Source: an uncultured archaeon
Lineage (GTDB): Archaea; Asgardarchaeota; Jordiarchaeia; Jordiarchaeales; Jordiarchaeaceae
Direction of reading: 5' to 3'
Assembly: GCA_964510585.1 (NCBI GenBank)
Contig: CAZECW010000047.1
Span: 1-21,589 of the forward strand
Length of the DNA stretch: 21,589 bases
In this document: piece by piece, positions 1,432 through 19,666 of the stretch
How positions within the stretch are numbered: position 1 is the first letter of the stretch
Layout of the letters: each line of letters starts with the position of its first letter
Notes under the pieces: model-generated
The model's input: only the letters and a program-made list of their open reading frames with translations
The model's database searches: none
What the model was told of the DNA's origin: nothing
Position numbers and translations under genes: made by a program

Positions 1432-3000
1432 TTAGCTGCTTTCTTCGAGTTTTATTCGGAAGTGTTGGTCGTATGCATTTTTGATTCTGGATGCGGTGTT
1501 GGAGTCGATTATTCCCCGTTTCTCCAGTAGGTTCATTCCTTTTGAGAATTCTTGGGCGATTTGGGGGTTTAGAAGGTAGTTATAGTTTCTGAGCCCCTCC
1601 TCGAAATTCTTGTTCGCCCTACCCTTCTCAATTTCTTCTTGGTAGTTTCGGGCAAGTTTGCTGATTTCTTTTAGTCTTACTATCCGCATCTTATCATTGA
1701 TGGTTACGGGCGATACCACTACGTAGGTTTTTTTGGCCTTTCTGCGATATTCTGCCACATATAATGGTATGAAAATTAGGAAGGGTTGGTTGCTTGGCAG
1801 GCGTTTCAGAGGGATAGTGATTTCCTCGTACTCTATTATGGCTTTCTCGGTTTTTTCCTTCCATGAGTGGAAGGCCGTGATTAGCTGTTCTCTTAATGCT
1901 TCAGCCTTTTCTACGGCTTTTTCGTATTCATCTATTTTGGAAGCCAGCTCTTCGAGTTTTCTCTCTAGTTCCGATTGGATTTCCTTCTCTGTTCTTTGGT
2001 ACTCCTCTTGGATTCTCTTTATTTCTCTTTCCTTGTCAGAGTAGAATTTGTCCACCTCTCTTTTGTAGGCTATGTATTCTCTCTCTAGGTTTTCCAATAA
2101 ATCCTGTAGTTCGTCGACAGCGTCCCTGAAGGCCCCTATTTCGTCAAGCATTTCGTACACGTCTTTTGACTCGACCATTTTCCAAACAGTGTCTGCATGT
2201 TCCGAAATTTTGTTCACTAGTCTTTCTAGGCTTGCTCCGGGTCGGGGCATCTTTTTGTCAAAAGTGGACTCGGAAATCTTGGAAATTTGCCTATCCCTCT
2301 TCTCTTTTTCAGCCTCTAATTTTTCTTGTGATTCTGATTTAAGCTCCGCCTCCTTTTCCTTGTAGTCGCTTTTCATGGCTTTGAACTGTTCAACAGCCTC
2401 CTTGATTCTGGAGTCTATGATTTCTAGAGTTGCTTCATGTTTCTGCTTCTCTCTCTGGATAAGGGTACTGCTGGGGAACCACTCAAGGCAGCTTTCATCT
2501 AGAAACTCCTTATTAATTGTGTATGAAGGCTCAATTACCTCAAACTGCTTCAAATTAGTCCACTCCTCAATCTTGGGTAGAAGCTCCCTAAGCTCAGAAG
2601 CGAAATCTTCACCCAGCCATCCTCTCAATTTTACACCACTAGGCTTCGACTGATAATCAGACACCGCCCTCCTCACATACCTTTCAAGCTCCGAAACAAA
2701 GGATAAAAAGTCTCCCTTACGAAGTTCCTCGGGAACACCAAAATCCAGTATCTGGAGATTAATCTTTGAAGATGAAAATTCACTGCCGTCAAAAACCAGA
2801 GCCTTACTCTCATCAAGGGGGTGAACCCAGAGAGGACAGAAAAACCTAGAAATAGAGGCCAAATCTTCCTCCTTTTTTCTCTCCTCCTCAATTAAAAGCA
2901 GAGCCACCGCTATTTCCACACTGTCCACATCCTTGGAAGTTACCAAACTTCCAGAGGAGGGCAACAAAAAAGGAACCGCAAGAATTCTCTCAAACTTCAT
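1432..3000 (-). CDS. Long coiled-coil protein with globular N- and C-terminal domains (~522 aa)
   Basis: The ORF track starts at 3021 (GTG), but ATG at 3000 is preceded by SD-like GGAAGGTGG and is preferred. The central ~220 aa is E/K/Q-rich heptad sequence interrupted by 'KKMPRPGAS'. No Walker A/B motif and no TM segment. Confidence 0.85.
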   Translation of the reverse strand: MKFERILAVPFLLPSSGSLVTSKDVDSVEIAVALLLIEEERKKEEDLASISRFFCPLWVHPLDESKALVFDGSEFSSSKINLQILDFGVPEELRKGDFLSFVSELERYVRRAVSDYQSKPSGVKLRGWLGEDFASELRELLPKIEEWTNLKQFEVIEPSYTINKEFLDESCLEWFPSSTLIQREKQKHEATLEIIDSRIKEAVEQFKAMKSDYKEKEAELKSESQEKLEAEKEKRDRQISKISESTFDKKMPRPGASLERLVNKISEHADTVWKMVESKDVYEMLDEIGAFRDAVDELQDLLENLEREYIAYKREVDKFYSDKEREIKRIQEEYQRTEKEIQSELERKLEELASKIDEYEKAVEKAEALREQLITAFHSWKEKTEKAIIEYEEITIPLKRLPSNQPFLIFIPLYVAEYRRKAKKTYVVVSPVTINDKMRIVRLKEISKLARNYQEEIEKGRANKNFEEGLRNYNYLLNPQIAQEFSKGMNLLEKRGIIDSNTASRIKNAYDQHFRIKLEESS

Positions 3001-3133
3001 AACGCCACCTTCCAACACCAATCAAACACGGAAATCCAAATCAAAAATACAAAACAATCCGAAATCCACCAAACATTTTCCGGATAGAAAAATAAGGTCT
3101 TCAAACTGTGTTCCAAAAGGGGATATAGTACAA

Positions 3134-3415
3134 TCATTGGCTTATCTCTATGTTTTTTATGTTTTCGGTTAAGTCATGGTCTATGATTATTTTGAGGGCT
3201 CCCTCAGGCGAGTCTATGGTTGCCTTCCTACCAACAAATTTTACCCGGCAATTGTTAACCACAACCTGGTTCGCAACCTCTTCAGTAATTATGCGCTCCT
3301 CTCTTTTGCCTGACTCTTCTCCAGACACCATTATTATCATTACCTTCAAAGCATCACTTTCAACGGTCACATCAACCTTCTGAACCCCTTCATAAGTAGT
3401 TTTCTTTCTAACCAT
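3134..3415 (-). CDS. Small beta-rich hypothetical protein (93 aa)
   Basis: ATG with upstream GGAGATG SD; alternating hydrophobic/polar strands (VDVTVE, VMIIMV, CRVKFVG, LKIII); same strand as and upstream of the coiled-coil gene; ends ...NIEISQ. Confidence 0.75.
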   Translation of the reverse strand: MVRKKTTYEGVQKVDVTVESDALKVMIIMVSGEESGKREERIITEEVANQVVVNNCRVKFVGRKATIDSPEGALKIIIDHDLTENIKNIEISQ

Positions 3416-3711: not shown

Positions 3712-5247
3712 TTGATTTTCCTATTGACAGACGAAGACAAAATTGGCGGAAACACGGAGGTGGAACCTGATACACACCAAAAAACTGTGAGTTTCTATGT
3801 TGTTGATGCTCACACCCATATCGGTAGGGAGGAGGTTCTGGAATATGGAAAAAAGGCCTACAGAACCAATAATCCAAAGCTCACCCTCGACTTCTATCAA
3901 AGGCTCCAATTTGAAGTTGCGAAAGCTATGAAAGTAAATTCTGGCAAGTACTGCTTTGTTCCCGCTGAGCCCTTCACAAAGCCTCCCCCACTGCTGAGTA
4001 TGCTTCAAGAGAACACTCCGGGGGTAAGAAGCATAGGCTGGACAGTTGACAAGTTTGTAGCCTTCCCCTTCAACGACACCACAGCCTACAATACTAGCCC
4101 TAGCTTCCAGCTCCCCAACGAAATGATTCTGAGCCGAGCAAGAGTTCTCCCCTACTCCCTGAGAATGCTGGGCTTTGTAAGAGTCGATCCCCGAGAGGGA
4201 GAAAAGGCAATCGAAGAAATAACGAGATGCAGTCAGCAAGGAGCCAGAGGATTAAAGCTTCACCCAATTTCCCAAAAATTTCTGAGCGAAGTCACCTCGG
4301 AAAATGTGAGGAAAGTTGTGGTCGCAGCAGCCAGGAATGGTCTTCCAGTGCTCTTCGACTGCAGGTATTACAGCACCGCTGAAGACATTTACCATTTAAC
4401 ACAGGAGGTTAGGGAGGAGCTAGGAGGCAGCGACTTCGCCATAATAGTGGGACATTCGGGAATGGAGTATACCAGGGACGAGCTCTACGAATTTTTCAAA
4501 GATCCCTGCATCTATGCTGAAACCTCGGGAGTGAGAGGATACGATGTTCCCCTCTTTTTCAAAAAGATGAAGAAATGCGTCCCCAACTGGTCGAGCAAAA
4601 TTTTATTCGGAACAGACTACAATTATTTCAGCCTCCCCCAAGCCACAGACTTCCTCTCCTACCTCTTCACAAGGGAGTTCCGCGACGAAATAGGAGGCAC
4701 ACCCCAAGATATACAACGCATTTTAGGAGGAAACCTTCTATCAATAATTAAACCATTCATAGTATCGCCCATTGAAGGAAAGGAAACCCCAACAGATGGA
4801 AAACTTTACCGATTAGCCTCCGAGTTCGCTGATGCGTTCCTCAAAACCTTATCTCTGAGAATATCCTTCCTTATCGGAGAAAAAAGGCTAACCTACATTA
4901 CTTACGAGGTCTTACTCTCCTCAAATTTCGACGTGGACTATGAAAGCTTCATTCTAAACCTGTCCTTCGGTAAGGTCAAAACACCACAAATCAATGAAGT
5001 CATAGTGGTTTCTAAGAGTAGTGATGACGCACGAGAGTATTTGAACGTATGCAACGTAACAGGGAAATTATTCCAAATAGAGGAAGACCTCAAGGAAGAA
5101 ACACCACAGAAAACAATACTAAACAATAAACTCTACACAAAGCTAATACACGAAACAGTCTTCAGCGGCAACCAAGAGGAAATCAAAACCAGAGAAGAAG
5201 CGGAAAAACTTCCAAAAATCCTAATCCCTCAACACACAGATGGGTAA
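3712..5247 (+). CDS. Amidohydrolase-superfamily TIM-barrel metallohydrolase (COG2159/Amidohydro_2-like) with C-terminal extension
   Basis: TTG start with AGGAG SD about 8 nt upstream. Motifs VDAHTHIG (HxH), GFVRVDP, GARGLKLHP, IIVGHSG, ETSG and ILFGTDY. About 160 extra residues follow the barrel. Confidence 0.9.
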   Translation: MIFLLTDEDKIGGNTEVEPDTHQKTVSFYVVDAHTHIGREEVLEYGKKAYRTNNPKLTLDFYQRLQFEVAKAMKVNSGKYCFVPAEPFTKPPPLLSMLQENTPGVRSIGWTVDKFVAFPFNDTTAYNTSPSFQLPNEMILSRARVLPYSLRMLGFVRVDPREGEKAIEEITRCSQQGARGLKLHPISQKFLSEVTSENVRKVVVAAARNGLPVLFDCRYYSTAEDIYHLTQEVREELGGSDFAIIVGHSGMEYTRDELYEFFKDPCIYAETSGVRGYDVPLFFKKMKKCVPNWSSKILFGTDYNYFSLPQATDFLSYLFTREFRDEIGGTPQDIQRILGGNLLSIIKPFIVSPIEGKETPTDGKLYRLASEFADAFLKTLSLRISFLIGEKRLTYITYEVLLSSNFDVDYESFILNLSFGKVKTPQINEVIVVSKSSDDAREYLNVCNVTGKLFQIEEDLKEETPQKTILNNKLYTKLIHETVFSGNQEEIKTREEAEKLPKILIPQHTDG

Positions 5248-5983: not shown

Positions 5984-6805
5984 ATGAAATGGGAAGATAC
6001 TGCACTAGAAATTCTCAGGTCCGAGTTCAATAACCGAATTTTTAGAGTAGACGATGTGTTTAAGCTCCTAAACGAGAAAAAAGGCTACTCCAGGGGAACA
6101 GCGTATCGTATTCTCCATGACCTTTCCAAGAAGGGATTAATAGAAAGATTGGGCAGAGGCATCTATAAGGTTTTGAAAACCGTTGAATTCAAAGAAAGTG
6201 TGATGGTGTCAGCTAGTGTGAGCGTTAACCTTATTCCAGGTTCACTAACTAAAGCGAGAGATTTGCTTAGAAATAAGGGAATCGAGTTCATGATTACCGG
6301 AGGCTCCTTACTCTATCGCTTTTTCCACCATTTACCCAAGCGTCTCATCCACTTAATATATGTTAAAAAAGGAGCGGGTGAAGTGGCTGTCACACTGCTA
6401 AGGGAAGCAGAAATAAGAGCCTTGCTAAACCCAAGCCGAAGCGAGATCAACATCGCACTGGAAAATTTTCCCGAGAGAGACATTTTCGTAATAAGAGAGT
6501 TCACGGAGCTTCCGGGCAACATTGATGGAAATGCGAGTATTGAGCGGGCTTTAGTGGATTTATATTTTGAGAGTACAAGGAGGAGAATACCTTTTTCTGA
6601 AGAAGAGGCTGGTCGAATTCTCTTCAAAGTATTGAGAACCGAACCAATAAATTTTAGCCATCTGCTCATGCTGGCAGCCAGAAGAGGAATAAGAAAAGAA
6701 ATGGAGGCAATAGCAAAGTTTGTTCACCCCGAGCTTCCCATAAAAGGCAAAAGCGAAAACAAATATGTAAAAAAAGTTGTCAAAGCAATGGAAGTATTGC
6801 GATGA
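5984..6805 (+). CDS. abiEi: Type IV TA antitoxin, AbiEi family (N-terminal wHTH)
   Basis: N-terminal winged HTH ending 'GLIERLGRGIYKV' (AbiEi signature L.R+.RG+Y); C-terminal 'SIERALVDLY' (T/S.ER.LVD); ATGA overlap with the downstream nucleotidyltransferase. Confidence 0.85.
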   Translation: MKWEDTALEILRSEFNNRIFRVDDVFKLLNEKKGYSRGTAYRILHDLSKKGLIERLGRGIYKVLKTVEFKESVMVSASVSVNLIPGSLTKARDLLRNKGIEFMITGGSLLYRFFHHLPKRLIHLIYVKKGAGEVAVTLLREAEIRALLNPSRSEINIALENFPERDIFVIREFTELPGNIDGNASIERALVDLYFESTRRRIPFSEEEAGRILFKVLRTEPINFSHLLMLAARRGIRKEMEAIAKFVHPELPIKGKSENKYVKKVVKAMEVLR

Positions 6806-7950
6806 GTCTGATCCACAATGCAAAATACTTTACCCAAGAAGAAATTTTGGAAAGAGCAAGAAAATACGAATTCCCAAATCCATTAGCTGTTGAAATATTT
6901 CTATGGGACTGCGAAATTGCTGCGCAACTTCAAGACAAATGCGTGGATATGGTGCTTAAAGGAGGAACAGCTGCACAGCTACATCTACCCTTAGAAAAAC
7001 AGAGAGGAAGTGTTGACATCGACCTAGCCACTCCTTTAAGTAAAGTTGATATCGCTGAAGTTGTTCAAAAAATAAGCCGATCCCTAAAAGGGAACGTTAA
7101 GTTTGAGTTACATAAACCGAAGAAACCTACCCCTAAGCTTCCACTCGTAACCTATTTTGCAAAAGCGCCTTCGAAAACAGACCTATCGAGAAAAGAGTTG
7201 GAAATAAAAATTGACATTTTCCTCAAGACCCCTAACTTGCCTACAATAGTGCTTAATAACGTTCAGACTTTTGCAGTAGATGTCGAAAGAATGAAATGTT
7301 TCACGGTTGGAACCCTTATCGGCGATAAGCTTCTCACACTTGCAGAAGAAAGCATAGGCATGACGCTTAAGGCAGATTATCCAAAGCAAATCTACGACAT
7401 AGATGCACTCCTAGAAATATGTGAAATTTCTAAGAACACTATCAATGACATAATTGAATCTGTCAAGACACTCACAAAACTTGAGGCTTCCATTAGAAAC
7501 ATGAAAATCACTCCAACAGAAGCCCTTCACGATGTCATAAAGACAATGGATAAGTATTCGCTGATGAACACAAGCGGTGGCGATGCAAACATCAAAAAGA
7601 ACATAGATGCATTTCAACAATTTTTCGTCAACAAGAATCAAAGAAAACCATTCTACAGTTGGAGTTCCAAGTCCCTAAAAATCAAGTTTCTCGCTACAAT
7701 AATCGGCGAATGCATCGAAAACAAATTAACTGAATCCAACGCTGCCGAAGTTATTACTCAGTCCAAAAGCATTGCAGCCAGACTCAATCAAATTTCTGGA
7801 AAGGACGTTATCGAGGTAAGGAAAAAACTCTTAGACCTTGCCCAAACAAAAATTCCCTATTTTAGGGAAATGAAAGGCAAGACGCTTGACAGAGTCTTTT
7901 GGCAAATCGTAACATTGGAAAACCTTGAAGACATACAATCTATACTATGA
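6802..7950 (+). CDS. abiEii: Type IV TA toxin, AbiEii/AbiGii nucleotidyltransferase
   Basis: Motifs VLKGGTA, RGSVDIDL, DKL and KQIYDI are characteristic of AbiEii-like polymerase-beta NTases; translationally coupled to the antitoxin (ATGA at 6802-6805). Confidence 0.88.
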   Translation: MSLIHNAKYFTQEEILERARKYEFPNPLAVEIFLWDCEIAAQLQDKCVDMVLKGGTAAQLHLPLEKQRGSVDIDLATPLSKVDIAEVVQKISRSLKGNVKFELHKPKKPTPKLPLVTYFAKAPSKTDLSRKELEIKIDIFLKTPNLPTIVLNNVQTFAVDVERMKCFTVGTLIGDKLLTLAEESIGMTLKADYPKQIYDIDALLEICEISKNTINDIIESVKTLTKLEASIRNMKITPTEALHDVIKTMDKYSLMNTSGGDANIKKNIDAFQQFFVNKNQRKPFYSWSSKSLKIKFLATIIGECIENKLTESNAAEVITQSKSIAARLNQISGKDVIEVRKKLLDLAQTKIPYFREMKGKTLDRVFWQIVTLENLEDIQSIL

Positions 7951-8440: not shown

Positions 8441-9769
8441 ATGTCAACGATACAATTAGAAATTATAAATGCTGGTGCAGCTGACGGCAGAGCTTACATG
8501 AATAAGAGTGACATGCAATCAATAGGCGTAGACGACTTTGATGTAGTAGTTTTTATCAACAAGTATGAGGATTGGGGAGCAGCCCAAGTCATCTCAAGCA
8601 ACGATTGCGCTCCAGGATACATAATGGTCGACGGCTCGGTTCTCGACTCCGCAAACGTTTCAGAAGGAGACACCGTCACAGTGAAGAGGAAGGAAGCGGT
8701 GGGTGGAGTAACAAGTGTTCAAATAGGTGTGGAGCCCATGGCTGGACAAGCCACCGAGGAAGTTGTAGTCTGGGTCGCCGACCACGTTGACGACCTGGCA
8801 CGCCTCCTAATGAAGAGACCCATATACAAGAATCTGGAAATAGATTGGAGAGATGCGGAGTGCGGCCACATCAAGCTCCGAGTACAGAAAACACAACCAG
8901 AACTATACTCGGAGGATGTAGCCATAATTGATCCAACTGGGAGAGAAGTAACATTCGAAATTGTTCCCGCAGTGGACATGACGTTCAACGCCATCCTCAT
9001 GATAGATGTTTCTGGAAGCATGCAGAAGCAGGATATGAGAGTCATAAACGCTGATGGGGCAGTTGAGGGACTGAGGAGGGGACTTAAGGAAACACCGCAG
9101 CTAAAAGACTTCATAGTCACCATGGAGGAAGGTGCCATGGTGAGCAGAATAAAGAGTGCGGCTCTTGCCACTCTCCTCTACCTCTCACTCAAAATAGGCA
9201 GAGGTTGGGGAGAAAACGTTCAGGTCATAACCTTTGCGGACACAGCTGAGCCGCTAAGAGTGACAGATGCTGATGGAAACGTGAGCACAGTAATAAAATG
9301 CACTGGTGAAAGCAAGGACATTGGCCTCGAAACAATAGCGAACTATATAATAGAGAAGTGCAAGGAAGGAAGCGGACTAACATACATGAGTGGAGCGCTC
9401 AAATTAGCCTCAGAACTAGCACAGGGATTCCCTCCAAACCCAAAAACAGGCGTGCCATCCCCAGTAATGATGGTGCTCCTGAGCGACGGGATGCCCAACA
9501 AGGGAGACCCAGACCAAGGCATACCAGTGAATCCCATTCCAGCAATAAAGAAGTTCCTCTCGGGACAGTCTGGCTGGGTACTCTACTGCGTAGGGCTGGG
9601 TGAAGCGGACGCTCAACTAATGCAAAAAATGGCGGAGCTTGGAAGGGGTGAATTTCTTAAGGCTACAGATTTCGGTCAACTATGGAAGTGGTACGACACC
9701 CTGGCGCAAAGGTTTGCCATCGCTGTTAAAACCACTCCCTCAACTTTTGTAGCTGAAGAACCCTCATAA
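8441..9769 (+). CDS. Cdc48-N-like (double-psi barrel plus CDC48_2-like) domain fused to a vWA domain
   Basis: Residues 1-175 align by eye to the N-domain of the Cdc48 in this window (GRAYMNKSDMQSIGVDDFDVV..PGYIMVDG..ANVSEGDTVTVKR..LARLLMKRPI vs [54 protein letters not shown]). The vWA part has MIDAS motifs DVSGS (D189, nt 9005), GLTYM and LLSDG. AGGTG SD upstream. Confidence 0.88.
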   Translation: MSTIQLEIINAGAADGRAYMNKSDMQSIGVDDFDVVVFINKYEDWGAAQVISSNDCAPGYIMVDGSVLDSANVSEGDTVTVKRKEAVGGVTSVQIGVEPMAGQATEEVVVWVADHVDDLARLLMKRPIYKNLEIDWRDAECGHIKLRVQKTQPELYSEDVAIIDPTGREVTFEIVPAVDMTFNAILMIDVSGSMQKQDMRVINADGAVEGLRRGLKETPQLKDFIVTMEEGAMVSRIKSAALATLLYLSLKIGRGWGENVQVITFADTAEPLRVTDADGNVSTVIKCTGESKDIGLETIANYIIEKCKEGSGLTYMSGALKLASELAQGFPPNPKTGVPSPVMMVLLSDGMPNKGDPDQGIPVNPIPAIKKFLSGQSGWVLYCVGLGEADAQLMQKMAELGRGEFLKATDFGQLWKWYDTLAQRFAIAVKTTPSTFVAEEPS

Positions 9770-9787
9770 AAGAGAAGTAAGGAAGGG

Positions 9788-12700
9788 TTAACTCGGTTCT
9801 CTTGGTAGCACAACTATTTCCACTTTTTCCTTTTTTATCATGTGGCTTGGGATAGGTTGACTATTTTCGGTTGCCCTGACTTCTAGAAGGTACCTTGTAC
9901 GGTAGGGAACTCTGGGAACCCTCCAAGAGAAGGGGCCATAATTCTTGATTTCTTCCTTCTGGTTAATGTTTATGTTCTTTATTTCTTCTTGTGCCTCTTC
10001 GCCTATAGCGTAGACTTGAACCTTGAAGTCTTTACCTCCATATTTTTTCTTTACCACTACTTCGAAGTTCACTTTATCGTCGCTTTTCACAATGCTTGGA
10101 ATGTGAGGTGATCCCATAATTTTTACTTCTAGTGGAGTTAGCTGCGGCCTTGAAACTTGAAGTTTGGGAGAGGAGACACATTCCTCAACCTTACCTTCCA
10201 AGCTGTAGGAAAGCTTGGCGATTAGGAAACACTCCCTATCCGCAGTATAAAGAGGTGGAGTAAAGGTTCCATCTATTTGGCTCTGCTCTCCAGGATCAAG
10301 CTTTAAACGAGTACCCTCAATATGTACCTCTTTTGAGTTTATGGGTAGAAATTTGAAGTCGACTGCTACGGAAATTTTTTTCTCCGCATTGTTTTTAACC
10401 CTGAGCAAATATTTTGTGGATTCCCCGGAACTCAAATTTCCCTGAATTAGGGGTGGAGTTACATCGATGGGGGAAGCCTGCTGAACTACTGTAACGGAAG
10501 CCTTCTTTGAACCAATATTTACTCCCCCCACATTTAGACTAGCTTCCAGAGAAGCCCTCTTCACACCGGAAGGAATGCCTCTGAGTCTCATAGGCATTGG
10601 CAAAAGATAGACTCCATCCTCCCGAATAGTGTAAAGGTAAGATTCCCTCTGAATACTTGCTTCTTGGGAGGAAAACTCAAGGTCAACGGAAACAGTAACA
10701 GGTTCAAGCACATATCTGGCATCAACCTGAAGCAGGGGAAGAATTCTGACACCATACATTACAATCTGGGGAACATTAAGAATCCCACGCAATCCAAACA
10801 TTTTGTTAACGCCTGGCGACCTTACAGAAATCTCTCCAGACTCAGACTTCTCAACAACCATTCCCCTATGGATAACCTCAGCCCTAAGCTTAAACCTTCT
10901 AGCCTTCGGAAGCCCCTCCATCTTAAACCTATACCCAATTCTCTTTTTATCAAAAAGTTTAACCATCTTGTGACCTACAAGAACCTCATCCCCATCCATG
11001 GGACAATAATAAAGATTCAGCCAGAAAGAACCAGTAACATCCAAATTAAGATTTTTCAAATCAATATCAAAATTGCAGCCAGAACCCAGAACCAGCTCCT
11101 TATCTTTAGAAGTAACGTAGAGAGAAACCCTAGGCGGCTCAACAACAGAAACCTCAACAGCCTTAGACTCCCTCACCCTCTTAACCGCCGGACACGTGGG
11201 CACTGTTACAGGTGCTACTTCAGCCACCTTAACCACTTCAGCACTCCTCTTCCCGTACTTTTCAGCCATGGGCCTGCTGACTGTCATCTTTGAAGTAACC
11301 TTCACTTCGGACGCCCTCGTTTCAGAAACCTGTTTGACAGAGGGCGGCTTCGCCTCTGAAACTCTCTTTGATTCAATGGTCCTCTCTACAGTTGGCTTAC
11401 TTGTAACGTGTGTTTTCAATTTGGCATCCTTTCTCGATGTCCTTACGTGGGCCACTGGCTTGGCTTCCTTTCTTTCAGGTCTGATCCTTCTTGGGGAAGC
11501 TTTCTTCACTGTGGGTGTGACTACCCTCAATTTTAGTGTGGGCTCCGCCCTTTCAGTTTGATATTTCTGGGGTGGGGAGCGTATCTGCGGTTGGGGTTGA
11601 ACCTTCCCCTTTGGCTGGGGTACTGTCCTAGGTGAAGGCGTAGCTAATTCGGGTTTTATCCTTTGAACTACTTTTGGGGCATGTGTTTCTGTGGTGAGTT
11701 TTGTTATCACCTTAACTTCTGGTTTCTTGGGTTCTGGTGCTGGTGCTTCTTTCGGTATAATGATTATGTTTGGGGTTTCGTATTCGCCTACAATTCGCCC
11801 CTTGTAGAGAACCTGCACTCTTACTCTTAGATTGGCTTCTTTTGCAATTTCTCCTCCTACTTTTATACTGTGAGGGACTTTTACTTCCTTAAGGTTGGTT
11901 AGACTCTTCTCCAACTGAAGTTTTAGAGCTCCGCTTGGAAACCTGTGGAAAATGCGCACCTGATATTTTCCAGAGAATTGGGGGGTGGTGTTTGCCACTT
12001 GGAAACTCATCTCATATGTTTTTCCTTCCTCAAATTTCTTGTAGACAGAAATGGGCTTAATTGAAATGTTGGGTGTGGCAATTACTCTAAAGGAGCCGGT
12101 TTTTATCTTGGCTAACTCGTTTTTCTCACTGTCACGAACAGTGAATTGGAGGAAGCAACTCTTTGGCTTAGAGAAGGCCCCAAAAGGCACCATAAGAGGA
12201 ATACTGCTTTCTTTAAAAATTGATTCTTTACCAGGCTTGAGCGAAACTTCTTTTACCGCTGTGCTAATAACGGCTTCCTCGTCACCCTCTTTGGATAGAA
12301 CCTTTCCAAGAATTGTGACATGAGTTTCAGAACTATTATTTGAAGATAAGCTAAGCTGGAAGGGAATACGCTCCTCAGCAATAACCTGTTTAGCTCCTAC
12401 GGAGGCAGCCCCCTTCACAGAGAAGGCGGACAAGGGCGCAGGGATGGGCGCGGTGACGCCTGTGGCTACTGGTTGGGCGGTGGATGTAGGCTTAGCAATA
12501 GCTTCCCTTACTGGCAACTCGGGAGCTCCGAAGAGGCTTGTTATGGGATCCTCATTGAGACTCGTGCAAAAGTCCTCGGTAATCTTAATTAGGTTTGATG
12601 TAACCCTCCTAAACTCGCCGCCTGAGGAGTGATAAAGGTATAGGAGATAGTCTGCTGGTGAGCAGGGAGGCTCAAGCTGGCTGGTTCCCATAACAGAGGC

Positions 12701-13903
12701 TAAAACTGGCTTGAGATACTCTTGGAAACCTAGCTCCTCAACCTCGCTCTGAATAAACTTGAGCATGCTTTGGACAGCTTCAAAAAGCTTCGTGTTCGGC
12801 TTCTCAGTGTCGGGGTCAAGATTATAATATTTCGCGAATTGCTTATTTGAATTGTTCAGACCATCGTCTCCAAAGAACTTGCCGAAAAGTCCAAACTCAA
12901 TAGCCTTATCCCTATTATCCACCAGAACCTCGGAGCTCACATTTGGCAGCCTCTGACCAGACTTGGCGATCTTCACAGCCTTGTAGGCTAGGGCCTGGAT
13001 AATTGCAACCAGGGCCAATCTACGCGAAACACTAAACTGACTATCAAAAACCCTAATCTCAATCGTTCCATAGTCGGTAAACGGAAACATATCCACAAAC
13101 CGGTCGTCGGGAGGCTCCCTGCTCACAATTTTGTCAAACTGTCTCCTGTCAAGCCTCTCCAGAAAGGGAATGTAGTGATCTTTGTCTGCAGGGCCAGTCT
13201 GCCCCTTGTTAAACTTCAGCCTAAGACTCCTCACATTATTCTGGCCAAGAATGGTAACCTTAGGCATTTTCTTAACCTTAACGTTACCCGTAGGCCCCTC
13301 ATTCATAAATGGAGAGTTCACGGAAAGCGCAATCAAGTGGGGTAGAAAACAACGCAAAACGTTATACGCAGCAAGCCTATCCCTGCTGTCAGGCATACCG
13401 ATATGATAGTGGTCGCCGAAGGTGACACCACTACGGTACTCAGCCTCCTTAGGATTAAAGCCAATCGATATAATTCCATAACCGCTTGGCAGAGAGTCTA
13501 GGGCAACCCGGTAAAGAGACTTAATCCACCAACCCAGCTCCTCCATAGTTTCACAGGGAGGAGTCACCAGCTCAAGAATCCAAGTAACCTGACTTATGTT
13601 GGGATCCGGCCCAAAAGCGTAAATCTCAACATTCCTACCCCCACGTATCCTATAGCTCACAGTAATGTAGGGCAACCTCCGCCCCTGACGCTCCTTTTCC
13701 ACACGCCCAACACGAACAAGCCTCTCCCTCACAATACTTGGAGCCCCCTCAAGAACCTTTTTCTCCAGCATGGCGGCCGCACGCTTAAGCAAGTGATCCC
13801 AAACCCTTATTAGAGACTGCCCCTGAAGCAGACTGCCACCCTGATCCACAATCTGAATCTCAATCTCGACACCCTGAGTAAAAGGAAGACGTTTACCATC
13901 CAT
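9788..13903 (-). CDS. Multidomain protein: GCS2/YbdK-like carboxylate-amine ligase, predicted beta-sandwich domains and a basic low-complexity linker (1371 aa)
   Basis: The N-terminal ~450 aa carry GCS2 motifs FTQGVEIEIQIVD, ILELVTPPC, TFGDHYHIG, LPHLIALSVNSPF and GTIEIRVFD. These are followed by a P/T/A linker, ~230 aa of beta-strand pattern, a ~205-aa P/K/R/S/T-rich linker and ~450 aa of beta-strand pattern. No signal peptide or TM segment. Confidence 0.88.
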   Translation of the reverse strand: MDGKRLPFTQGVEIEIQIVDQGGSLLQGQSLIRVWDHLLKRAAAMLEKKVLEGAPSIVRERLVRVGRVEKERQGRRLPYITVSYRIRGGRNVEIYAFGPDPNISQVTWILELVTPPCETMEELGWWIKSLYRVALDSLPSGYGIISIGFNPKEAEYRSGVTFGDHYHIGMPDSRDRLAAYNVLRCFLPHLIALSVNSPFMNEGPTGNVKVKKMPKVTILGQNNVRSLRLKFNKGQTGPADKDHYIPFLERLDRRQFDKIVSREPPDDRFVDMFPFTDYGTIEIRVFDSQFSVSRRLALVAIIQALAYKAVKIAKSGQRLPNVSSEVLVDNRDKAIEFGLFGKFFGDDGLNNSNKQFAKYYNLDPDTEKPNTKLFEAVQSMLKFIQSEVEELGFQEYLKPVLASVMGTSQLEPPCSPADYLLYLYHSSGGEFRRVTSNLIKITEDFCTSLNEDPITSLFGAPELPVREAIAKPTSTAQPVATGVTAPIPAPLSAFSVKGAASVGAKQVIAEERIPFQLSLSSNNSSETHVTILGKVLSKEGDEEAVISTAVKEVSLKPGKESIFKESSIPLMVPFGAFSKPKSCFLQFTVRDSEKNELAKIKTGSFRVIATPNISIKPISVYKKFEEGKTYEMSFQVANTTPQFSGKYQVRIFHRFPSGALKLQLEKSLTNLKEVKVPHSIKVGGEIAKEANLRVRVQVLYKGRIVGEYETPNIIIIPKEAPAPEPKKPEVKVITKLTTETHAPKVVQRIKPELATPSPRTVPQPKGKVQPQPQIRSPPQKYQTERAEPTLKLRVVTPTVKKASPRRIRPERKEAKPVAHVRTSRKDAKLKTHVTSKPTVERTIESKRVSEAKPPSVKQVSETRASEVKVTSKMTVSRPMAEKYGKRSAEVVKVAEVAPVTVPTCPAVKRVRESKAVEVSVVEPPRVSLYVTSKDKELVLGSGCNFDIDLKNLNLDVTGSFWLNLYYCPMDGDEVLVGHKMVKLFDKKRIGYRFKMEGLPKARRFKLRAEVIHRGMVVEKSESGEISVRSPGVNKMFGLRGILNVPQIVMYGVRILPLLQVDARYVLEPVTVSVDLEFSSQEASIQRESYLYTIREDGVYLLPMPMRLRGIPSGVKRASLEASLNVGGVNIGSKKASVTVVQQASPIDVTPPLIQGNLSSGESTKYLLRVKNNAEKKISVAVDFKFLPINSKEVHIEGTRLKLDPGEQSQIDGTFTPPLYTADRECFLIAKLSYSLEGKVEECVSSPKLQVSRPQLTPLEVKIMGSPHIPSIVKSDDKVNFEVVVKKKYGGKDFKVQVYAIGEEAQEEIKNININQKEEIKNYGPFSWRVPRVPYRTRYLLEVRATENSQPIPSHMIKKEKVEIVVLPREPS

Positions 13904-13934
13904 TAAACCACACTCAAAACATACGCCGTGCCGC

Positions 13935-13953
13935 GGTGGAGAAGCTTCCCACC
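13935..13953. promoter_or_regulatory. Near-perfect palindrome at the ligase promoter/5' UTR (candidate operator or hairpin)
   Basis: GGTGG-A-GAAGCTTC-CCACC is an 18-bp palindrome with one extra A, 32-50 nt upstream of the ligase ATG. TATA-like TTTATCAG (13978-13985, minus) and TATTTATT (about 13958-13965, minus) lie just upstream. Confidence 0.35.
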
Positions 13954-14232
13954 TTCAAATAAATATCTGGAAGAAGACTGATAAATCTCTTTCTTAAACA
14001 ATCCAAACACTTCACCACTATTTCAGCCGTGGAAAGCATCAAATGCCATCAATATACATATTCCCAAGTTTTTCTAGGCAACTATTTTGGAGTAAAAAAC
14101 CAATCAAAGATTTATTTATTCTAAAAAGGCTGAAGACCTAACCCTAAATAACCCTTAACAGAAGTTAGTAAAAAGTTATCAGTACCATCTTATAAAATGG
14201 GAGAATTTCTCCTCTGGGGTGTGATTTCCGGC

Positions 14233-14958
14233 TTAGTCCTTTTCGCGGAGGCGTAGCACACATTTATTGTCCTTCTTTGAGGTTTCTATTTTTATTATTC
14301 CCCTTTCCTCTGAGTCCTTCAGCGCCTTCATTAATTTCTCTTCCCTCACATCTAGCAATTCGGAAATCTTGGAGAGTGGACACTCTCCTCCAGATTCCAG
14401 TAGGATTCGCAGTGAGGAGACTGCGTCGGGAAGAAGGTCAAAGTCCTCAATCACTCGGTCCATTTCCCGGAAAATCATCTGTGAAATTTGAATGAGCTGC
14501 TTTTCCTCCTCCCGCAGAGCCACCAACTCCTCCTCAACACTTTTAAGCAATTCCACACCCTTCCTCAGCTTTTCCAAGGGACTCTGCGCCTTCTCCAAAT
14601 TGTAAATCTCCTTAAGAAACTTGTTTAATTTACCCTTGCCCGTCTCAACCACGTCCGGCAGCATATCCAGAATCTCTCTGAAAGTGTTAGGCGCAATACT
14701 AAAAGACAGAAACAGTGAAGCATCAACATAGTAGTAGGTTCTCTCAGGACCAATGGGGCTCTCAACAATCCTTTTCTTAACAATGCCCTTCTCTTCAAGA
14801 AGAGCCAAATGCTGGGAAACTGCCCTAGGAGTAATTTTAAGCTGCGTAGCTATCTCAAAAGGATATCGGCTTCCCTTGGTAAGCAGCTGAAGAATCCTAC
14901 GCCTAGTGGGATTACCCAAAATAAACATTAAATCCTCAAGAGATATTTCCTTCTCCAT
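14233..14958 (-). CDS. ArsR-family wHTH heat-shock regulator, Phr/HSR1-like (COG1777)
   Basis: LGNPTRRRILQLLTK..AVSQHLALLEEKGIV..GPERTYY closely follows the Pyrococcus Phr pattern; central coiled-coil and a second C-terminal wHTH-like segment; adjacent to hsp20 and cdc48 as in the Archaeoglobus HSR1 locus. Confidence 0.85.
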   Translation of the reverse strand: MEKEISLEDLMFILGNPTRRRILQLLTKGSRYPFEIATQLKITPRAVSQHLALLEEKGIVKKRIVESPIGPERTYYYVDASLFLSFSIAPNTFREILDMLPDVVETGKGKLNKFLKEIYNLEKAQSPLEKLRKGVELLKSVEEELVALREEEKQLIQISQMIFREMDRVIEDFDLLPDAVSSLRILLESGGECPLSKISELLDVREEKLMKALKDSEERGIIKIETSKKDNKCVLRLREKD

Positions 14959-14981
14959 CCAAAAACAGCCCCCTTTTCCTC

Positions 14982-14997
14982 AAAAAACAAAAAAAAA
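14982..14997 (-). terminator. Oligo-T terminator after cdc48
   Basis: The minus strand reads TTTTTTTTTGTTTTTT about 25-40 nt after the cdc48 stop and just before the regulator start. Confidence 0.55.
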
Positions 14998-15021
14998 GGT
15001 GGAAGAGGATCACCATCCGCC

Positions 15022-17223
15022 CTACTGCTTGTTCTCTGCAAAGCTGCAGTAAAGTTTTTCTAGCTGTTCTCTCCTCGAGCGTGACATAGGCTTAACTTTT
15101 GTTAGCGCCTCCTCTAAGTGTTCCATTGTAATCTTGCAGTCTATCTTTTCCTCCTTGTCACTGAGGTCTTTGCCGTTCTTAGCAATGTACTCTCTTATGG
15201 CAGCCATTACAGCCTCGTTGCAAACCGCAGCTATGTCAGCACCAGAATATCCGTCGGTCTTCTCAGCCAGCTTTTCAATGTTAACATTTCCGGCAAGGGG
15301 CTTGCCTCGTAGATGCACCTCGAATATCTTCTTTCTTGTTTCAAAATCGGGAAGAGGAATGTAAATCAGCTGGTCAAATCTTCCCGGCCTCAGAAGCGCT
15401 GGGTCAATTATGTCAGGCCTGTTTGAAGCTGCAATTACTGTTACACCCTTAAGTTCCTCAAGACCGTCAAGCTCCGTCAATATTTGACTTATAACTCTTT
15501 CAGTCACATGTGAGTCTCCGAAGTCACCTCCCCTCACCGGGGTGATTGAGTCAATTTCGTCAAAGAACACTATGCATGGAGCTGCCTGCCTAGCCTTCCT
15601 GAATGTTTCACGCACAGCCTTCTCAGATTCACCCACCCATTTTGATAGGAACTCGGGGCCCTTCACAGAGATGAAGTTTGCTTCACTCTCGTGGGCTACT
15701 GCCTTTGCCAGCAGTGTTTTTCCAGTTCCCGGTGGCCCATATAGGAGTATTCCTTTTGGTGGGTTAGCTTTCATGTGTCTGAAGAGGTTGGGGTATTTAA
15801 GTGGCCACTCCACGGCTTCGATTAGTTGCTTTTTGACTTCTTCTAGTCCTCCTATGTCTTCCCAAGTGACGTTTGGCACCTCAACAAAGACTTCCCTCAG
15901 TGCTGATGGTTCAATGTCCCTGAGTGCATTTTCAAAGTCTTCCCTTGTAACCTGTATCTTATCCAGAACCTCAGCAGGTATGGTTTCCGCTTCCAAATCT
16001 ATTTCTGGCAGTATTCTTCTTAGGGCTATCATAGCCGCCTCCTTACAGAGTGCCTCTATGTCTGCGCCTACGAAGCCATGTGTAACTCTGGCAAGCTCGT
16101 CCAAGTTAACGTCCTTTGCCAGCGGCATTCCCCTCGTGTGTATTTGGAATATTGCTCTTCTGCCTTCCTGGTTCGGTATGCCGATTTCGATTTCCCTGTC
16201 GAACCTGCCTCCCCGTCTGAGAGCTGGGTCTATTGCGTTTGGCCTGTTGGTCGCAGCAATCACTATGACTTTTCCGCGGGATTTGAGGCCATCCATAAGC
16301 GTTAGGAGCTGTGAAACCACTCTCCTCTCAACGTCGCCTGTTACCTCTTCCCTTTTTGGTGCTATGGAGTCCAGTTCATCTATGAATATTATGCTTGGCG
16401 CATTCTTCTCGGCTTCCTCAAATATTTCTCTCAGTCTGCTCTCACTCTCACCGTAGAATTTGCTCATTATTTCTGGTCCACTTATGCTGTAGAAGTTGGC
16501 GTTTGTCTCATTTGCCACCGCTTTAGCTAGCAATGTTTTACCTGTTCCGGGTGGTCCATAGAGGAGAACTCCCTTGGGTGGCTCTATTCCCAGCTTGCTG
16601 AAAAGTTCTGGGTGGTTAAGCGGTAGCTCTATCATCTCTCTAACCTTTCTGATTTCCTCGTCCAGCCCTCCAATGTCTTCGTATGATACTCTGGGAACCT
16701 TTTTGGCCTCGATTTCCTCTGCTGGTTTTTCGCTTATTCTTACCTCTGTTTCGCTGGTCATAATCACAGTGTCAGATTTGGGAGTGAAGCTTGTGACCAT
16801 GAGGACGATTTTGCCGCTTAGGGCTGCGATTTCAACATAGTCTCCAATGCTTATTACCCGACCCTCAAGGAGCCTTCTGAGATAGTCTTCAGCTCCCGTG
16901 ATTCTTATAGCTAGGGTGGGGGCAAAAGTGATGCTGGTGGCTGGCTTTGCTTCAACCTTTCTGATTTCCACCTTGTCATCAAGCGAAGTTCCAGCATTTC
17001 TTCTTGTGGCACCGTCTATTCTGATTATTCCCTTGCCAGTGTCTTCTGGATACCCGGGCCAGGCTAGGGCCGCGGTTTTCCTTTTTCCAACTATTTCCAC
17101 TGCGTCGCCTGTTCTTATGTCCAGTTGGCTTGCAATTTTGGGATCAATGCGGATGATGTTTCTTCCCACATCTCTGGGCTTTGCTTCTGCCACTCTCACA
17201 ATTATGCTTTTTTGATTGGTCAT
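15022..17223 (-). CDS. cdc48: Cdc48/VAT type II AAA+ ATPase (733 aa)
   Basis: N-domain plus two AAA modules, each with GPPGTGKT; Walker B motifs IIFIDELD and IVFFDEID; pore loops KFYG and KWVG; SRH motifs ALRRGGRFD and ALLRPGRFD; GGTGG SD. Confidence 0.98.
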
Positions 17224-17297
17224 ATTTTTTTCACCACCAATTAATCATTAACATAAACATTCTTTTAATTAAACAATTTTTAATTATTTGTTCTATT

Positions 17298-17801
17298 TTA
17301 TTTTACCTCGACTTCAAACTCGTCGGATTCCAGCGGTTCCTTAAACTTTACTCTAACTTCAAGGATTCCGTTCTTGTACTCTGCACTGGCTGATTTGGGG
17401 TCGATTTCCCGCTCTGTGTCCAATTCCTTGTAGTACTTTTTCTTTTCTGACTCTGCAGATATGGTCACTTTCCTCTTTGTGGCCTTGACTTTGATGTTTT
17501 CCTTGGAGACTCCCGGCAGTTCTGCAACTATTATCAGGATTCCGGCTTCCTTGTCTATGTGGGTTTCCGTGTATGGGGTCTGCACTGCTCCGTCAACTTG
17601 TTCGCCCCTGTTGGGGTTTGTGTTTCCGAACTCTGTGATTACTGGTTTGGCGTCTTGGTCTATGTGGATTGAGACGCCGTAGTGTAGTGGTGTTTCTTCG
17701 GTGTCTGGTTCGATCGCTGTTCTGAATAGGCGGTCGAATATGAACTCTTGTTCTCTTAATGTTTTTCTTAGTTCCTTGAAGATGTCGTCGAATCCGTTCA
17801 T
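17298..17801 (-). CDS. hsp20: Archaeal small heat-shock protein Hsp20 (~167 aa)
   Basis: Alpha-crystallin motifs AELPGVSKENI and AEYKNGILEV, plus the archaeal 'YGVSIHI..KPVITEFGN' segment. ATG 17801 with GAGGTG SD is preferred over the ORF-track start at 17810. Confidence 0.95.
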   Translation of the reverse strand: MNGFDDIFKELRKTLREQEFIFDRLFRTAIEPDTEETPLHYGVSIHIDQDAKPVITEFGNTNPNRGEQVDGAVQTPYTETHIDKEAGILIIVAELPGVSKENIKVKATKRKVTISAESEKKKYYKELDTEREIDPKSASAEYKNGILEVRVKFKEPLESDEFEVEVK

Positions 17802-17845
17802 GTTTAACACCTCGCTGGTGTTTTATTCAATGTAGTAAACTTTAT

Positions 17846-18296: not shown

Positions 18297-18809
18297 TCAA
18301 AAGCTGTCTAATGCTTTGATTATTTTGGTATAAAGTTCGGTGGAGCACCTCCACCCTTCCCTGATCATTTCATTTAGCTTATCTATAAATTCTTCCTTTG
18401 TTATTATTGCCTTCCTAAGAAAGCAAAACAATAAATAGATTGTTCCATGATTAGGTATTCTCTCTAGGTCAGCCATCGCACGGGATTCCTCATCATCCAT
18501 TAATGCGATTGCGTGTAACTCTTTGGCTAAACTTAGTACTTCAGCATCCGCACAATGTATCTTAGGATTTTCCAAAAGGTGTTTAGTAAATCCGTCATCG
18601 GATGGCGACTTGATTTTAATCACATTTTCTCTTATAAGTTTATCAACCTTAAATGCATCAGCCACCCCTAACTCTTTTCCCTTAGTTACAACCTCGTCAT
18701 AAACCGACTGGGGAATATACTTCTTCTCTGGAAGTTCTTTAATATGTTCTATGAGGCTTACTTTAGATAGGTAGATTAGAGGTGAAGCATTGAAAACTAG
18801 AGTGGCCAC
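18297..18809 (-). CDS. PIN-domain protein (DUF3368/COG2405), putative TA toxin
   Basis: LVFNASPLIYL, IPQSVYDEV, ADAEVLSLA, ALMDD and HGTIYLL follow the DUF3368 PIN pattern; the GTG start overlaps the antitoxin TAG by 1 nt (TAGTG). Confidence 0.88.
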   Translation of the reverse strand: MATLVFNASPLIYLSKVSLIEHIKELPEKKYIPQSVYDEVVTKGKELGVADAFKVDKLIRENVIKIKSPSDDGFTKHLLENPKIHCADAEVLSLAKELHAIALMDDEESRAMADLERIPNHGTIYLLFCFLRKAIITKEEFIDKLNEMIREGWRCSTELYTKIIKALDSF

Positions 18810-19111
18810 TATGGAGCCTTCTTTATGTCTTCTTCAATCATTTTTTCGGATTTTATCCAGACCACATCTTCCTTCCTGACTAAATCCGCAAACTCCCACA
18901 CAGACATACCAGCAATTTCCGCCGCTTTAACATAAGACACTCTCCCCTCCCTTAACAGCTTCAAGGCTCTTCCTTCCTTCCATCTTTTCAACCCTTCAGC
19001 CAATAGTTTCCTAATAGAGGCGGATTTTTCTAAAGACTCCTCACGCATAAACATTTCCAAGTCACGTGCCATCTCTTTAGGGATCCTGGAAGAAATAGTT
19101 ATTTCAGTCAT
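18809..19111 (-). CDS. UPF0175-family antitoxin (RHH-like N-terminus plus HTH), 100 aa
   Basis: Starts MTEITISSRIPKE at ATG 19111 with GGTGGA SD; the ORF-track extension to 19207 is unlikely. 'ALKLLREGRVSYVKAAEIAGMSVWEF' is the UPF0175 signature. Confidence 0.88.
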   Translation of the reverse strand: MTEITISSRIPKEMARDLEMFMREESLEKSASIRKLLAEGLKRWKEGRALKLLREGRVSYVKAAEIAGMSVWEFADLVRKEDVVWIKSEKMIEEDIKKAP

Positions 19112-19123
19112 TATTTTTCCACC

Positions 19124-19138
19124 GTATATAATGTATAC
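19124..19138. promoter_or_regulatory. GTATA-N5-TATAC inverted repeat at the TA promoter
   Basis: GTATATAATGTATAC lies between a TATA-like element (minus-strand AAAAATATTTATG, about 19146-19158) and the antitoxin SD; this is a typical position for an autoregulatory operator. Confidence 0.45.
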
Positions 19139-19666
19139 TATGCAAACATAAATATTTTTGTATTCCCCCCTATTAATGGGTATCTGGTAAGAGCTGAATA
19201 GTCTCATAAAATCTGCGAGTTACACATTTCTCATTATTCAAATATAACTCATAAATTTCTCAAGATTGGGGATTCTTTAAACCTTTTCAACCCCTATGAA
19301 TCCCATTAACGTGTTCGATTGGCTTCTTTTTCCCCTATTCTGTTACCATTTGCTTTCAAAATCCACACTTTGCATTTTTTTCTCAAACCAACTTAAAGGT
19401 TTAGATACAAGCACCACTCAACGGGGAGGCGTCGATACAAAAAAGGTTCTATAAGAGAATCAAAGGAGAGAATAGTAGACCAAAAAAGGGAATAAAAACA
19501 TTCAACGTTCGTCAAAGCACCTTCAAAGATTCAATTTAGTTGTTACTTGTCGGGTCATCCCCTAAAGTTTTAGGTTTGTTATCTCTGCTTAAATAAGAGA
19601 TAATTATACGGAAAAAGATACGAAGAAGCAATTAAATATCAAGCCAAAAAAATTTATACTTCGGGC

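Follow-up and report, generated by a model that had tools for sequence, protein, structure and literature searches.

A conserved Asgard archaeal module of a YbdK/GCS2-type ligase, a Cdc48N-vWA protein and an Amidohydro_2 hydrolase: a possible writer, adaptor and eraser of amide marks

The window analyzed here, the whole stretch of 21,589 nucleotides of contig CAZECW010000047.1, comes from an uncultured archaeon of the Jordarchaeales, and its DNA was found in hot-spring DNA metagenomes only. Three of its genes are the main subject of this report: one coding for a 1371-amino acid carboxylate-amine ligase (9788-13903, minus strand), one for a 442-amino acid protein that fuses a Cdc48-type N domain to a vWA domain (8441-9769, plus strand; the vWA protein from here on), and one for a 511-amino acid metal-dependent hydrolase of the Amidohydro_2 family (3712-5247, plus strand). 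We hold it very probable that these three genes are a real module conserved in Asgard archaea. That the three proteins serve as a writer, adaptor and eraser set for amide marks on macromolecules is a reading that we regard as evenly poised. A preliminary description of the same DNA had joined the ligase and the vWA protein to the neighboring hsp20, cdc48 and phr-like genes in a Pup-like tagging route. Open reading frame and domain searches found the genes as described there, with hsp20, cdc48, the phr-like gene and the ligase gene all on the minus strand. The ligase and vWA genes do converge, with their stop codons exactly 18 bp apart (9770-9787). The pairing of these two genes has held, the heat-shock genes are no longer counted as members, and the amidohydrolase had been overlooked.

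The distribution of the ligase and the vWA protein was determined in 301 Asgard genomes from 30 GTDB families, and co-occurrence was counted by family because related genomes are not independent. The ligase was present in 173 of the 301 genomes and the vWA protein in 174. Both genes occurred in the same 10 families, and neither was detected in the 104 genomes of the other 20. Prevalence within families was high (65/76 for the Thor type, 61-63/68 for the Loki type). A vWA or amidohydrolase homologue was found in all 26 ligase loci with approximately 10 kb of flank on both sides, and in each of the lineages covered, amidohydrolase homologues were neighbors of either the vWA or the ligase gene. 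As a partner, the amidohydrolase is conserved no less than the vWA protein.

The linkage was kept in several gene orders. The arrangement of the window, in which the amidohydrolase is followed by the vWA gene and the ligase converges on the latter, was found as two paralogous copies per genome in 11 Jordarchaeales genomes, and also in genome G014. The genome to which the window belongs has its paralogous copies on contigs C47 and C196. The order is amidohydrolase, ligase and vWA, all in one direction, in Hod-type loci, and vWA, PQQ and ligase in Sigyn-type loci. In Heimdall-type loci the amidohydrolase is followed by the ligase, and the vWA gene is found about 7 kb upstream; in Thor-type loci the ligase lies about 7 kb away from a vWA-amidohydrolase pair read in the reverse direction. 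The conserved genes found between ligase and vWA gene in the Thor-type loci (ABC ATPases, DUF92, PfkB, HEAT) were considered as members and rejected, as they look like housekeeping synteny. Loki-type loci consist of a 600-amino acid partner, a ligase lacking the tail and an amidohydrolase, with the vWA gene 4 to ~100 kb off. The partnership of ligase and vWA protein proposed in the preliminary description is therefore upheld by a linkage that persists in several orders and in two paralogous pairs, by matching families, and by the complex prediction presented below; the two genes co-occur and cluster across Asgard relatives. No paper describing the module, or linking a COOH-NH2 ligase with a vWA protein, was found in the literature.

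One cluster is present in the cultured Ca. Lokiarchaeum ossiferum, at about 5.242-5.260 Mb of CP163304.1. In this organism (CP163304.1; L132:1506-4250), the vWA gene encodes a 755-amino acid triple-barrel protein and is located about 4 kb from the ligase-amidohydrolase pair. A gene with a faint Pfam match to Roadblock/LC7 is directly upstream of it.

The ligase is a member of PF04107 (38.8 bits, cut-off 21) and matched the YbdK models of NCBIfam at 1e-21, a score that does not reach the equivalog cut-off (76.9 versus 371 bits). Because the equivalog cut-offs were missed, it should be regarded as a family member and not as a YbdK or GshA equivalog. Its relatives are confined to Asgard-labelled sequences, where they carry the annotation hypothetical protein or "glutamate-cysteine ligase family". 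The catalytic domain (amino acids 1-470, nucleotides 12494-13903) is of the YbdK/GCS2 type of ATP-dependent carboxylate-amine ligases, and the only sequence matches in the PDB were the YbdK entries 1r8g and 1tt4. A model of this domain was obtained with high confidence (predicted local distance difference test, pLDDT, 92.5; predicted template modelling score, pTM, 0.94), and its best matches among solved structures were the same two YbdK proteins (template modelling, TM, score 0.77, E 3e-16). Plant and bacterial glutamate-cysteine ligases came next, while Dop and PafA appeared at ranks 24-32 of the Foldseek search (E 1.6e-6 to 3e-5, TM 0.40-0.48). The fold kinship with PafA noted in the preliminary description is thus correct at the level of the superfamily, and does not extend to closest relationship, as YbdK and the glutamate-cysteine ligases rank first.

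Residues G11, E13, E15, E111, H165, H167, E282 and R284 were invariant in 32 ligase homologues, so that the family keeps its GhExE and HxH motifs as well as the E-x-R strand. Since these motifs are conserved within a YbdK fold, ATP-dependent acyl-phosphate chemistry is expected. Alignment to 1r8g placed the WDIRP of YbdK over VDMFP in the window ligase, and the position of the DIRP arginine, just before the E-x-R strand, is occupied by Phe, Tyr or Trp throughout the family. This arginine, we presume, takes part in the binding of Glu by YbdK, and the aromatic residue in its place may be a hint of a substrate other than Glu. The catalytic region is also about 100 residues longer than YbdK, owing to inserts and to helices at its C-terminus.

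The non-catalytic tail of the ligase (amino acids 471-1371, nucleotides 9788-12493) comprises a beta-rich region, a linker and putative Ig/CARDB-like C-terminal domains. The linker is basic and rich in Lys and Pro, and spans about 180 amino acids (720-900). When three tail segments were searched, a weak Pfam match to the ASH/Cep192 Ig-like family was found at amino acids 1151-1228; CARDB-like features came up in Atlas with a score of 0.91, to be taken as a lead only. The tail evolves much faster than the catalytic domain: identity within the genus is 53% versus 80%, and identity to the sister family is ~25% versus 60%. Loki-type ligase homologues (~550-590 amino acids) have no tail.

The vWA protein matched CDC48_N (PF02359) with 39.5 bits (cut-off 35.1). 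Amino acids 1-175 correspond to a complete p97/Cdc48 N domain with its two subdomains, a double-psi barrel and a beta-clam (TM 0.78-0.82 and root-mean-square deviation 2.6-3.3 Å over ~175 columns with 3qq7, 3tiw and 5epp; Z 17.2 to 9uw1). Amino acids 178-431 adopt a canonical vWA fold (Z 19-21 to 4fx5, 6fpy, 4wfq and 3ibs), with a Pfam VWA score barely below the cut-off (23.2 versus 23.8 bits). The model of the whole protein had a pLDDT of 84. Domain search and folding therefore agree with the preliminary description that a Cdc48-type N domain is fused to a vWA domain. No AAA match was found by Pfam in this protein and the N domain is followed by the vWA domain, so identity as a Cdc48 family AAA ATPase, which would require two AAA+ modules after the N domain, was ruled out. 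The residues of the metal ion-dependent adhesion site (MIDAS), D189, S191, S193, T314 and D349, were invariant in 17 homologues. As the MIDAS is strictly conserved, a ligand-binding role is indicated for the vWA domain. Between families, the vWA protein is 71-73% identical, and the catalytic domain of the ligase is 60-63% identical.

Interaction between the two proteins was assessed by predicting a complex of the ligase catalytic domain with the whole vWA protein, together with three controls. The interaction prediction scores from aligned errors (ipSAE) of the ligase-vWA complex were 0.80, 0.75 and 0.68, while all three controls scored 0.00. The pairing of the Cdc48N-vWA protein with the ligase, already raised in the preliminary description, passes in this prediction (ipSAE 0.75, best control 0.00), with partner pLDDT of at least 79 and at least 50% of the contacts common to the runs. 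Of 80 solved complexes, 58 reach the pass mark, while only 2 out of 110 mismatched pairs do so, a calibration that is only rough for this case, in which our own alignments were used. Since we know of no solved complex of this kind, a pass through the memory of the model is unlikely. On the ligase side, the predicted interface includes residues 154-158, 219-243, 333-343 and 369-372, and the catalytic residues are outside the list of contacts. On the side of the vWA protein, it includes both N-domain subdomains and, in the vWA domain, the conserved GRGxGE loop. The model supports binding of the vWA protein by the ligase catalytic domain, and suggests that the Cdc48-type N domain may be a ligase-docking module and not a device for delivery to Cdc48.

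The amidohydrolase belongs to PF04909 (42 bits, cut-off 26.4), and its metal ligands D32, H34, H36, K182, H184, H248 and D302 were invariant in 15 homologues. Elsewhere in the genome of the window (G000, contig C65, L036:6141-8819), a single 892-amino acid protein contains Amidohydro_2, CDC48_N and vWA domains. Related fusions were found in other Jordarchaeales (L054:439-2982, L063:531-3074, L066:519-3089), and the four proteins range from 847 to 892 amino acids. The fusion in the genome of the window keeps the HxH motif (VDVHMH); the other three read VDVDAQ and have lost the metal ligands.

In the proposed mechanism, the Cdc48-type N domain would dock on the catalytic domain of the ligase, beside the loops of the active site, instead of serving Cdc48. 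The Mg-binding MIDAS face of the vWA domain would then be left free to hold an acidic ligand. The ligase would convert a carboxylate into an acyl-phosphate and couple it to the amine of a protein or peptide that the complex holds; the vWA protein itself and the coiled-coil protein associated with the module are candidate substrates. The amidohydrolase would reverse or prime the amide bond, following a logic like that of PafA and Dop with an independent origin. The roles of the ligase as writer and of the amidohydrolase as eraser are inferred, and the probability that the substrate is a protein or a peptide is in our judgment nearly, if not quite, one in two.

The choice of a protein or peptide substrate is favored mainly because the same adaptor pairs either with the ligase and amidohydrolase or with E1/E2 enzymes and a metal isopeptidase. 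The 90 database relatives of the vWA protein are all Asgard-labelled, apart from a handful of records that seem to be mis-binned. A C-terminal ubiquitin domain is present in six of these relatives, which share 44-50% identity with the vWA protein of the window; it ends in STAG or STAGG followed by a short stretch of residues, an ending that should allow conjugation. The gene for such a ubiquitin-like-fused vWA protein (vWA-Ubl) lies beside E1 (ThiF), E2 (UQ_con), JAB and membrane RING genes in two loci of different arrangement. A free ubiquitin gene occurs in one of these loci, and both have a coiled-coil gene directly upstream of the vWA-Ubl gene. The ubiquitin-fused proteins were monophyletic in a quick tree (Shimodaira-Hasegawa-like approximate likelihood ratio test, SH-aLRT, 96) and formed a clade sister to the ligase-linked Sigyn group, within the clade that holds the protein of the window. 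No Ubl-fused vWA protein was found in the 301-genome Asgard sample. The genome of the window has separate Ub/E2 loci on other contigs. By analogy, the location of the ubiquitin-fused clade beside E1, E2, JAB and RING genes favors protein-level amide conjugation and does not prove it. A fuller version of this idea is a ubiquitin-independent Asgard conjugation system in which a YbdK-derived ligase, held by a vWA receptor through its Cdc48-type N domain, writes an isopeptide-type mark that the TIM-barrel amidohydrolase erases or primes, and in which the receptor of one lineage gained a conjugatable ubiquitin tail and moved beside E1/E2/RING/JAB genes. We put this version forward tentatively, as it is more doubtful than the general assignment of writer, adaptor and eraser functions.

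Two further features of the vWA-Ubl loci were observed. An (S/T)KTP motif is found repeatedly: in the linker that precedes the ubiquitin domain in vWA-Ubl, in the N-terminal extension of the free ubiquitin and at both ends of the coiled-coil protein, which has PPKYQ...KTP at its N-terminus and ...KTP at its C-terminus (L117:8204-11764, from Hodarchaeota; L129:1076-3964; L119:8847-11695; L130:324-3121). A shared role of this motif as a docking or acceptor site is conceivable. The SPPQKYQ in the linker of the window ligase resembles the PPKYQ of the coiled-coil protein, a likeness that may be due to chance. The second feature is a polytopic membrane protein of 366-379 amino acids with a C-terminal RING-like zinc finger (L117:4362-5462, minus strand; L129:3974-5113, minus strand), a candidate membrane-anchored E3.

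Several points weigh against the assignment of the module to amide marks on macromolecules. The complex score is a measure of model confidence and not a measurement, and the predicted interface is no more conserved than the average of the whole proteins (permutation p 0.93 for the ligase and 0.10 for the vWA protein). A hidden Markov model (HMM) built from the ubiquitin tails detected no ubiquitin-like open reading frame in more than 90 loci and none in any locus with the ligase, where no Pup-like tag gene was seen either; no Pup HMM was run. Neither a ligase nor an amidohydrolase gene is present within 10 kb of the ubiquitin-fused genes, and because of this the ubiquitin analogy rests on one shared protein. 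To our knowledge, the characterized relatives of both enzymes, YbdK/GCS2 and Amidohydro_2, act on small molecules.

This last point leads to the strongest of the competing explanations, a small-molecule pathway in which a small amide, such as a gamma-glutamyl compound or a thiol cofactor, is synthesized by the ligase and then degraded or matured by the amidohydrolase, and the vWA protein and the Ig-like tail act as scaffold or regulators. The nearest relatives of the ligase by sequence and by structure are indeed YbdK and the glutamate-cysteine ligases, and PF04909 is an enzyme family known for small substrates. The ligase and amidohydrolase genes are adjacent and co-oriented in the Loki-, Hod- and Heimdall-type loci, in the manner of a metabolic operon, and the short Loki-type ligases do without the tail. 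Set against this, the Cdc48N-vWA interaction partner always accompanies the module and coiled-coil proteins often do, there is a protein in which hydrolase and adaptor are fused, the predicted docking site of the adaptor is next to the active site, the DIRP arginine is lost, and no other biosynthetic genes are conserved near the module. We consider a small-molecule pathway unlikely, although it is the alternative to be taken most seriously. Even with a small-molecule substrate, it would be unusual for a GCS2-type enzyme to have an obligate vWA-adaptor subunit.

A less probable explanation, to which we give little credence, is that the Cdc48N-vWA protein is a scaffold, the prokaryotic counterpart of the NTD-SABA region of DEPDC5/Iml1, with the two enzymes as regulated signaling clients. 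The Roadblock/LC7-like gene directly upstream of the L. ossiferum vWA gene would fit this idea. DEPDC5 was not among the best 50 structural matches, but these were filled by single-domain vWA and Cdc48N hits, so that this search neither favors nor weakens the idea. The strict conservation of the MIDAS speaks against it.

The locus could also be a conflict or defense system, with a vWA-based sensor and enzymatic effectors like those of the bacterial vWA conflict systems. There are toxin-antitoxin pairs in and beside the locus. A 273-amino acid AbiEi-like antitoxin and a 382-amino acid AbiEii nucleotidyltransferase toxin (Pfam AbiEi_4/DUF6577 and AbiEii; 5984-7950, plus strand) split the amidohydrolase from the vWA gene, and just upstream of hsp20 there are UPF0175 and PIN-like (DUF3368) genes with a one-base overlap (18297-19207, minus strand), which probably form a toxin-antitoxin module. 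The rapid evolution of the ligase tail and the 3-4 paralogous vWA copies of Jordarchaeales, inactivated fusions included, would also be compatible with defense. On the other hand, the module is near-universal and syntenic within the Thor- and Loki-type families, and the identities between families given above for the vWA protein and the catalytic domain are high. In addition, no association with mobile elements was seen except for the AbiE insertion, which is specific to the genome of the window: the pair is missing at the same site in the same-genus genomes G003 and G005, and it is not counted in the module. Judged by distribution, sequence identity and gene neighborhood, a defense function is quite improbable.

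The heat-shock genes lie on the other side of the ligase. They code for Hsp20 (17298-17810, minus strand; NF041800 at 2e-39), Cdc48 (15022-17223, minus strand; TIGR01243, 1111 bits) and a Phr-like winged helix-turn-helix regulator (14233-14958, minus strand; NF053602 at 7e-18). The regulator matched the Phr model with 64.8 bits, below the exception cut-off of 320, and for this reason it is designated Phr-like and not a proven orthologue. The three families stand together and co-oriented (14233-17810, minus strand), which is the make-up of a Phr/HSR1-type operon, an arrangement that we take to be known from Archaeoglobus and Pyrococcus. We read hsp20-cdc48-phr as an ordinary archaeal heat-shock operon that merely abuts the module as an independent neighbor. 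Between the phr-like gene and the ligase there is a spacer of 329 bp, AT-rich and with T-runs, and because of it, judging from sequence alone, the ligase is probably transcribed from a promoter of its own and separately from the heat-shock genes. Besides the window, the cdc48, phr and hsp20 genes flank the ligase only in the two closest relatives (L037 and L038) and in G003. They are missing from the 20 kb around the pair in the complete genome G005, of the same genus and with a vWA protein 89% identical, and they are not beside the ligase in the sister family or in any locus of the Thor, Loki, Hod, Heimdall or Sigyn type. The genome of the window has three more Cdc48N-vWA loci, and cdc48 is a neighbor in none of these.

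These observations bear on the proposal of the preliminary description, namely that the ligase marks proteins with a Pup-like tag and the vWA protein hands them over to the neighboring Cdc48 under heat shock. Since the adjacency to cdc48 is absent in a same-genus genome and in all other lineages, delivery to Cdc48 is not supported; the adjacency is local to the nearest relatives, the N domain is predicted to bind the ligase, and no conserved link to an unfoldase or to proteasome genes was found. In all likelihood, the Cdc48 neighborhood of the module is coincidental. The co-orientation of the genes in the window and its closest relatives, the distant fold relationship to PafA and Dop (Foldseek E 1e-6 to 1e-5) and the probable origin of PafA from a GCS2 precursor (PMC2588565) are outweighed by the gene neighborhoods, the T-run spacer, the predicted place of the N domain and the lack of a tag gene in the HMM search described above, and this route is the least probable of those considered here.

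Other genes may accompany the three members of the module. The window encodes a 529-amino acid coiled-coil protein (1432-3021, minus strand) without a Pfam family, an accessory of the type-1 Jordarchaeial loci. Its gene was found in all five type-1 loci and, in the sister family, it is directly upstream of the ligase in the same orientation. Between this gene and the amidohydrolase there is a 93-amino acid open reading frame (3134-3415, minus strand) that is found in type-1 loci only and is kept in five loci. Its product had no match in Pfam and no usable match in Atlas, and ends in ...EISQ in the genus of the window and not in the sister family. In other loci, a protein of 227-261 amino acids, also without a Pfam family, is encoded directly upstream of the ligase (L021:8591-9376, minus strand; L089:9290-9961, plus strand). 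The Jordarchaeial type-2 and Thor versions of this protein are homologous (hhalign probability 96%, E 2e-9), and it is weakly similar to the C-terminal part of the Loki 600-amino acid partner and to amino acids 337-475 of the coiled-coil protein of the window. It may be a fourth member of the module.

Two variants of the vWA protein were also recorded. The genome of the window has a third Cdc48N-vWA paralogue, of 427 amino acids (L022:7057-8340, contig C11), which falls in the type-2/Loki clade of the tree; no ligase or amidohydrolase gene is present in the ~7 kb upstream of it, and the contig ends 1.2 kb downstream. The Heimdall-type vWA protein (L047:1179-2666, minus strand) ends with roughly 50 acidic tail residues (...DDDEEDY), reminiscent of the C-terminal tails of tubulin. 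This tail is not kept in other lineages.

Among known archaea, the Asgard group stands nearest to eukaryotes, and for this reason its protein-modification machinery bears on the origin of ubiquitin-type signaling. The module unites a chemistry like that of PafA with two eukaryote-style interaction domains, Cdc48N and vWA, and most genomes of the Thor, Loki, Hod, Heimdall, Sigyn and Jord types retain it. If the conjugation reading were true, two unrelated amide-forming chemistries would have been interchangeable around one adaptor in this group of archaea. The question is directly testable because one of the clusters is in the cultured Ca. Lokiarchaeum ossiferum.

The module was compared with several known systems. 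With YbdK/GCS2 enzymes (PF04107; 1r8g from E. coli and 1tt4 from Salmonella), the ligase shares the fold (TM 0.77) and the three sets of motifs, but it has about 900 extra residues that include the basic linker and Ig-like domains, has lost the DIRP arginine, works with obligate vWA and amidohydrolase partners, and is found in Asgard-labelled sequences only. Pupylation (PafA, Dop, Pup and the Mpa-proteasome) uses a ligase of the same superfamily, thought to derive from GCS2-type ligases (PMC2588565), and likewise pairs a ligase with an amide hydrolase in a logic of reversible amides. Unlike it, the module has a ligase with PafA and Dop as only distant fold matches (TM 0.40-0.48), a hydrolase that is a TIM-barrel Amidohydro_2 protein and not a PafA paralogue, no Pup-like tag among its loci in the ubiquitin-tail HMM search (again, no Pup HMM was run), and no conserved link to an unfoldase or proteasome. 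The N domain has the two-subdomain fold of that of Cdc48/p97 (TM 0.78-0.82, Z 17) and a predicted use in protein docking, although the protein lacks AAA+ modules and its predicted partner is the ligase and not a UBX, VIM or SHP cofactor. With the vWA/MIDAS adaptors (Rpn10, TFIIH p44/Ssl1, BatB and NorD-type proteins) it shares the canonical vWA fold (Z 17-21) and a complete MIDAS; it differs from them in being fused to Cdc48N, in one clade to ubiquitin, and in having no ubiquitin-interacting motif (UIM) or MoxR/AAA+ partner. Finally, while the module of the window has no E1 or E2 genes, the sister clade of its vWA protein ends in AG/AGG and adjoins two Asgard ubiquitin operons (Ub, E1 ThiF, E2 UQ_con, JAB, RING), and both systems, the module putatively, make and cleave amide bonds to carboxylates.

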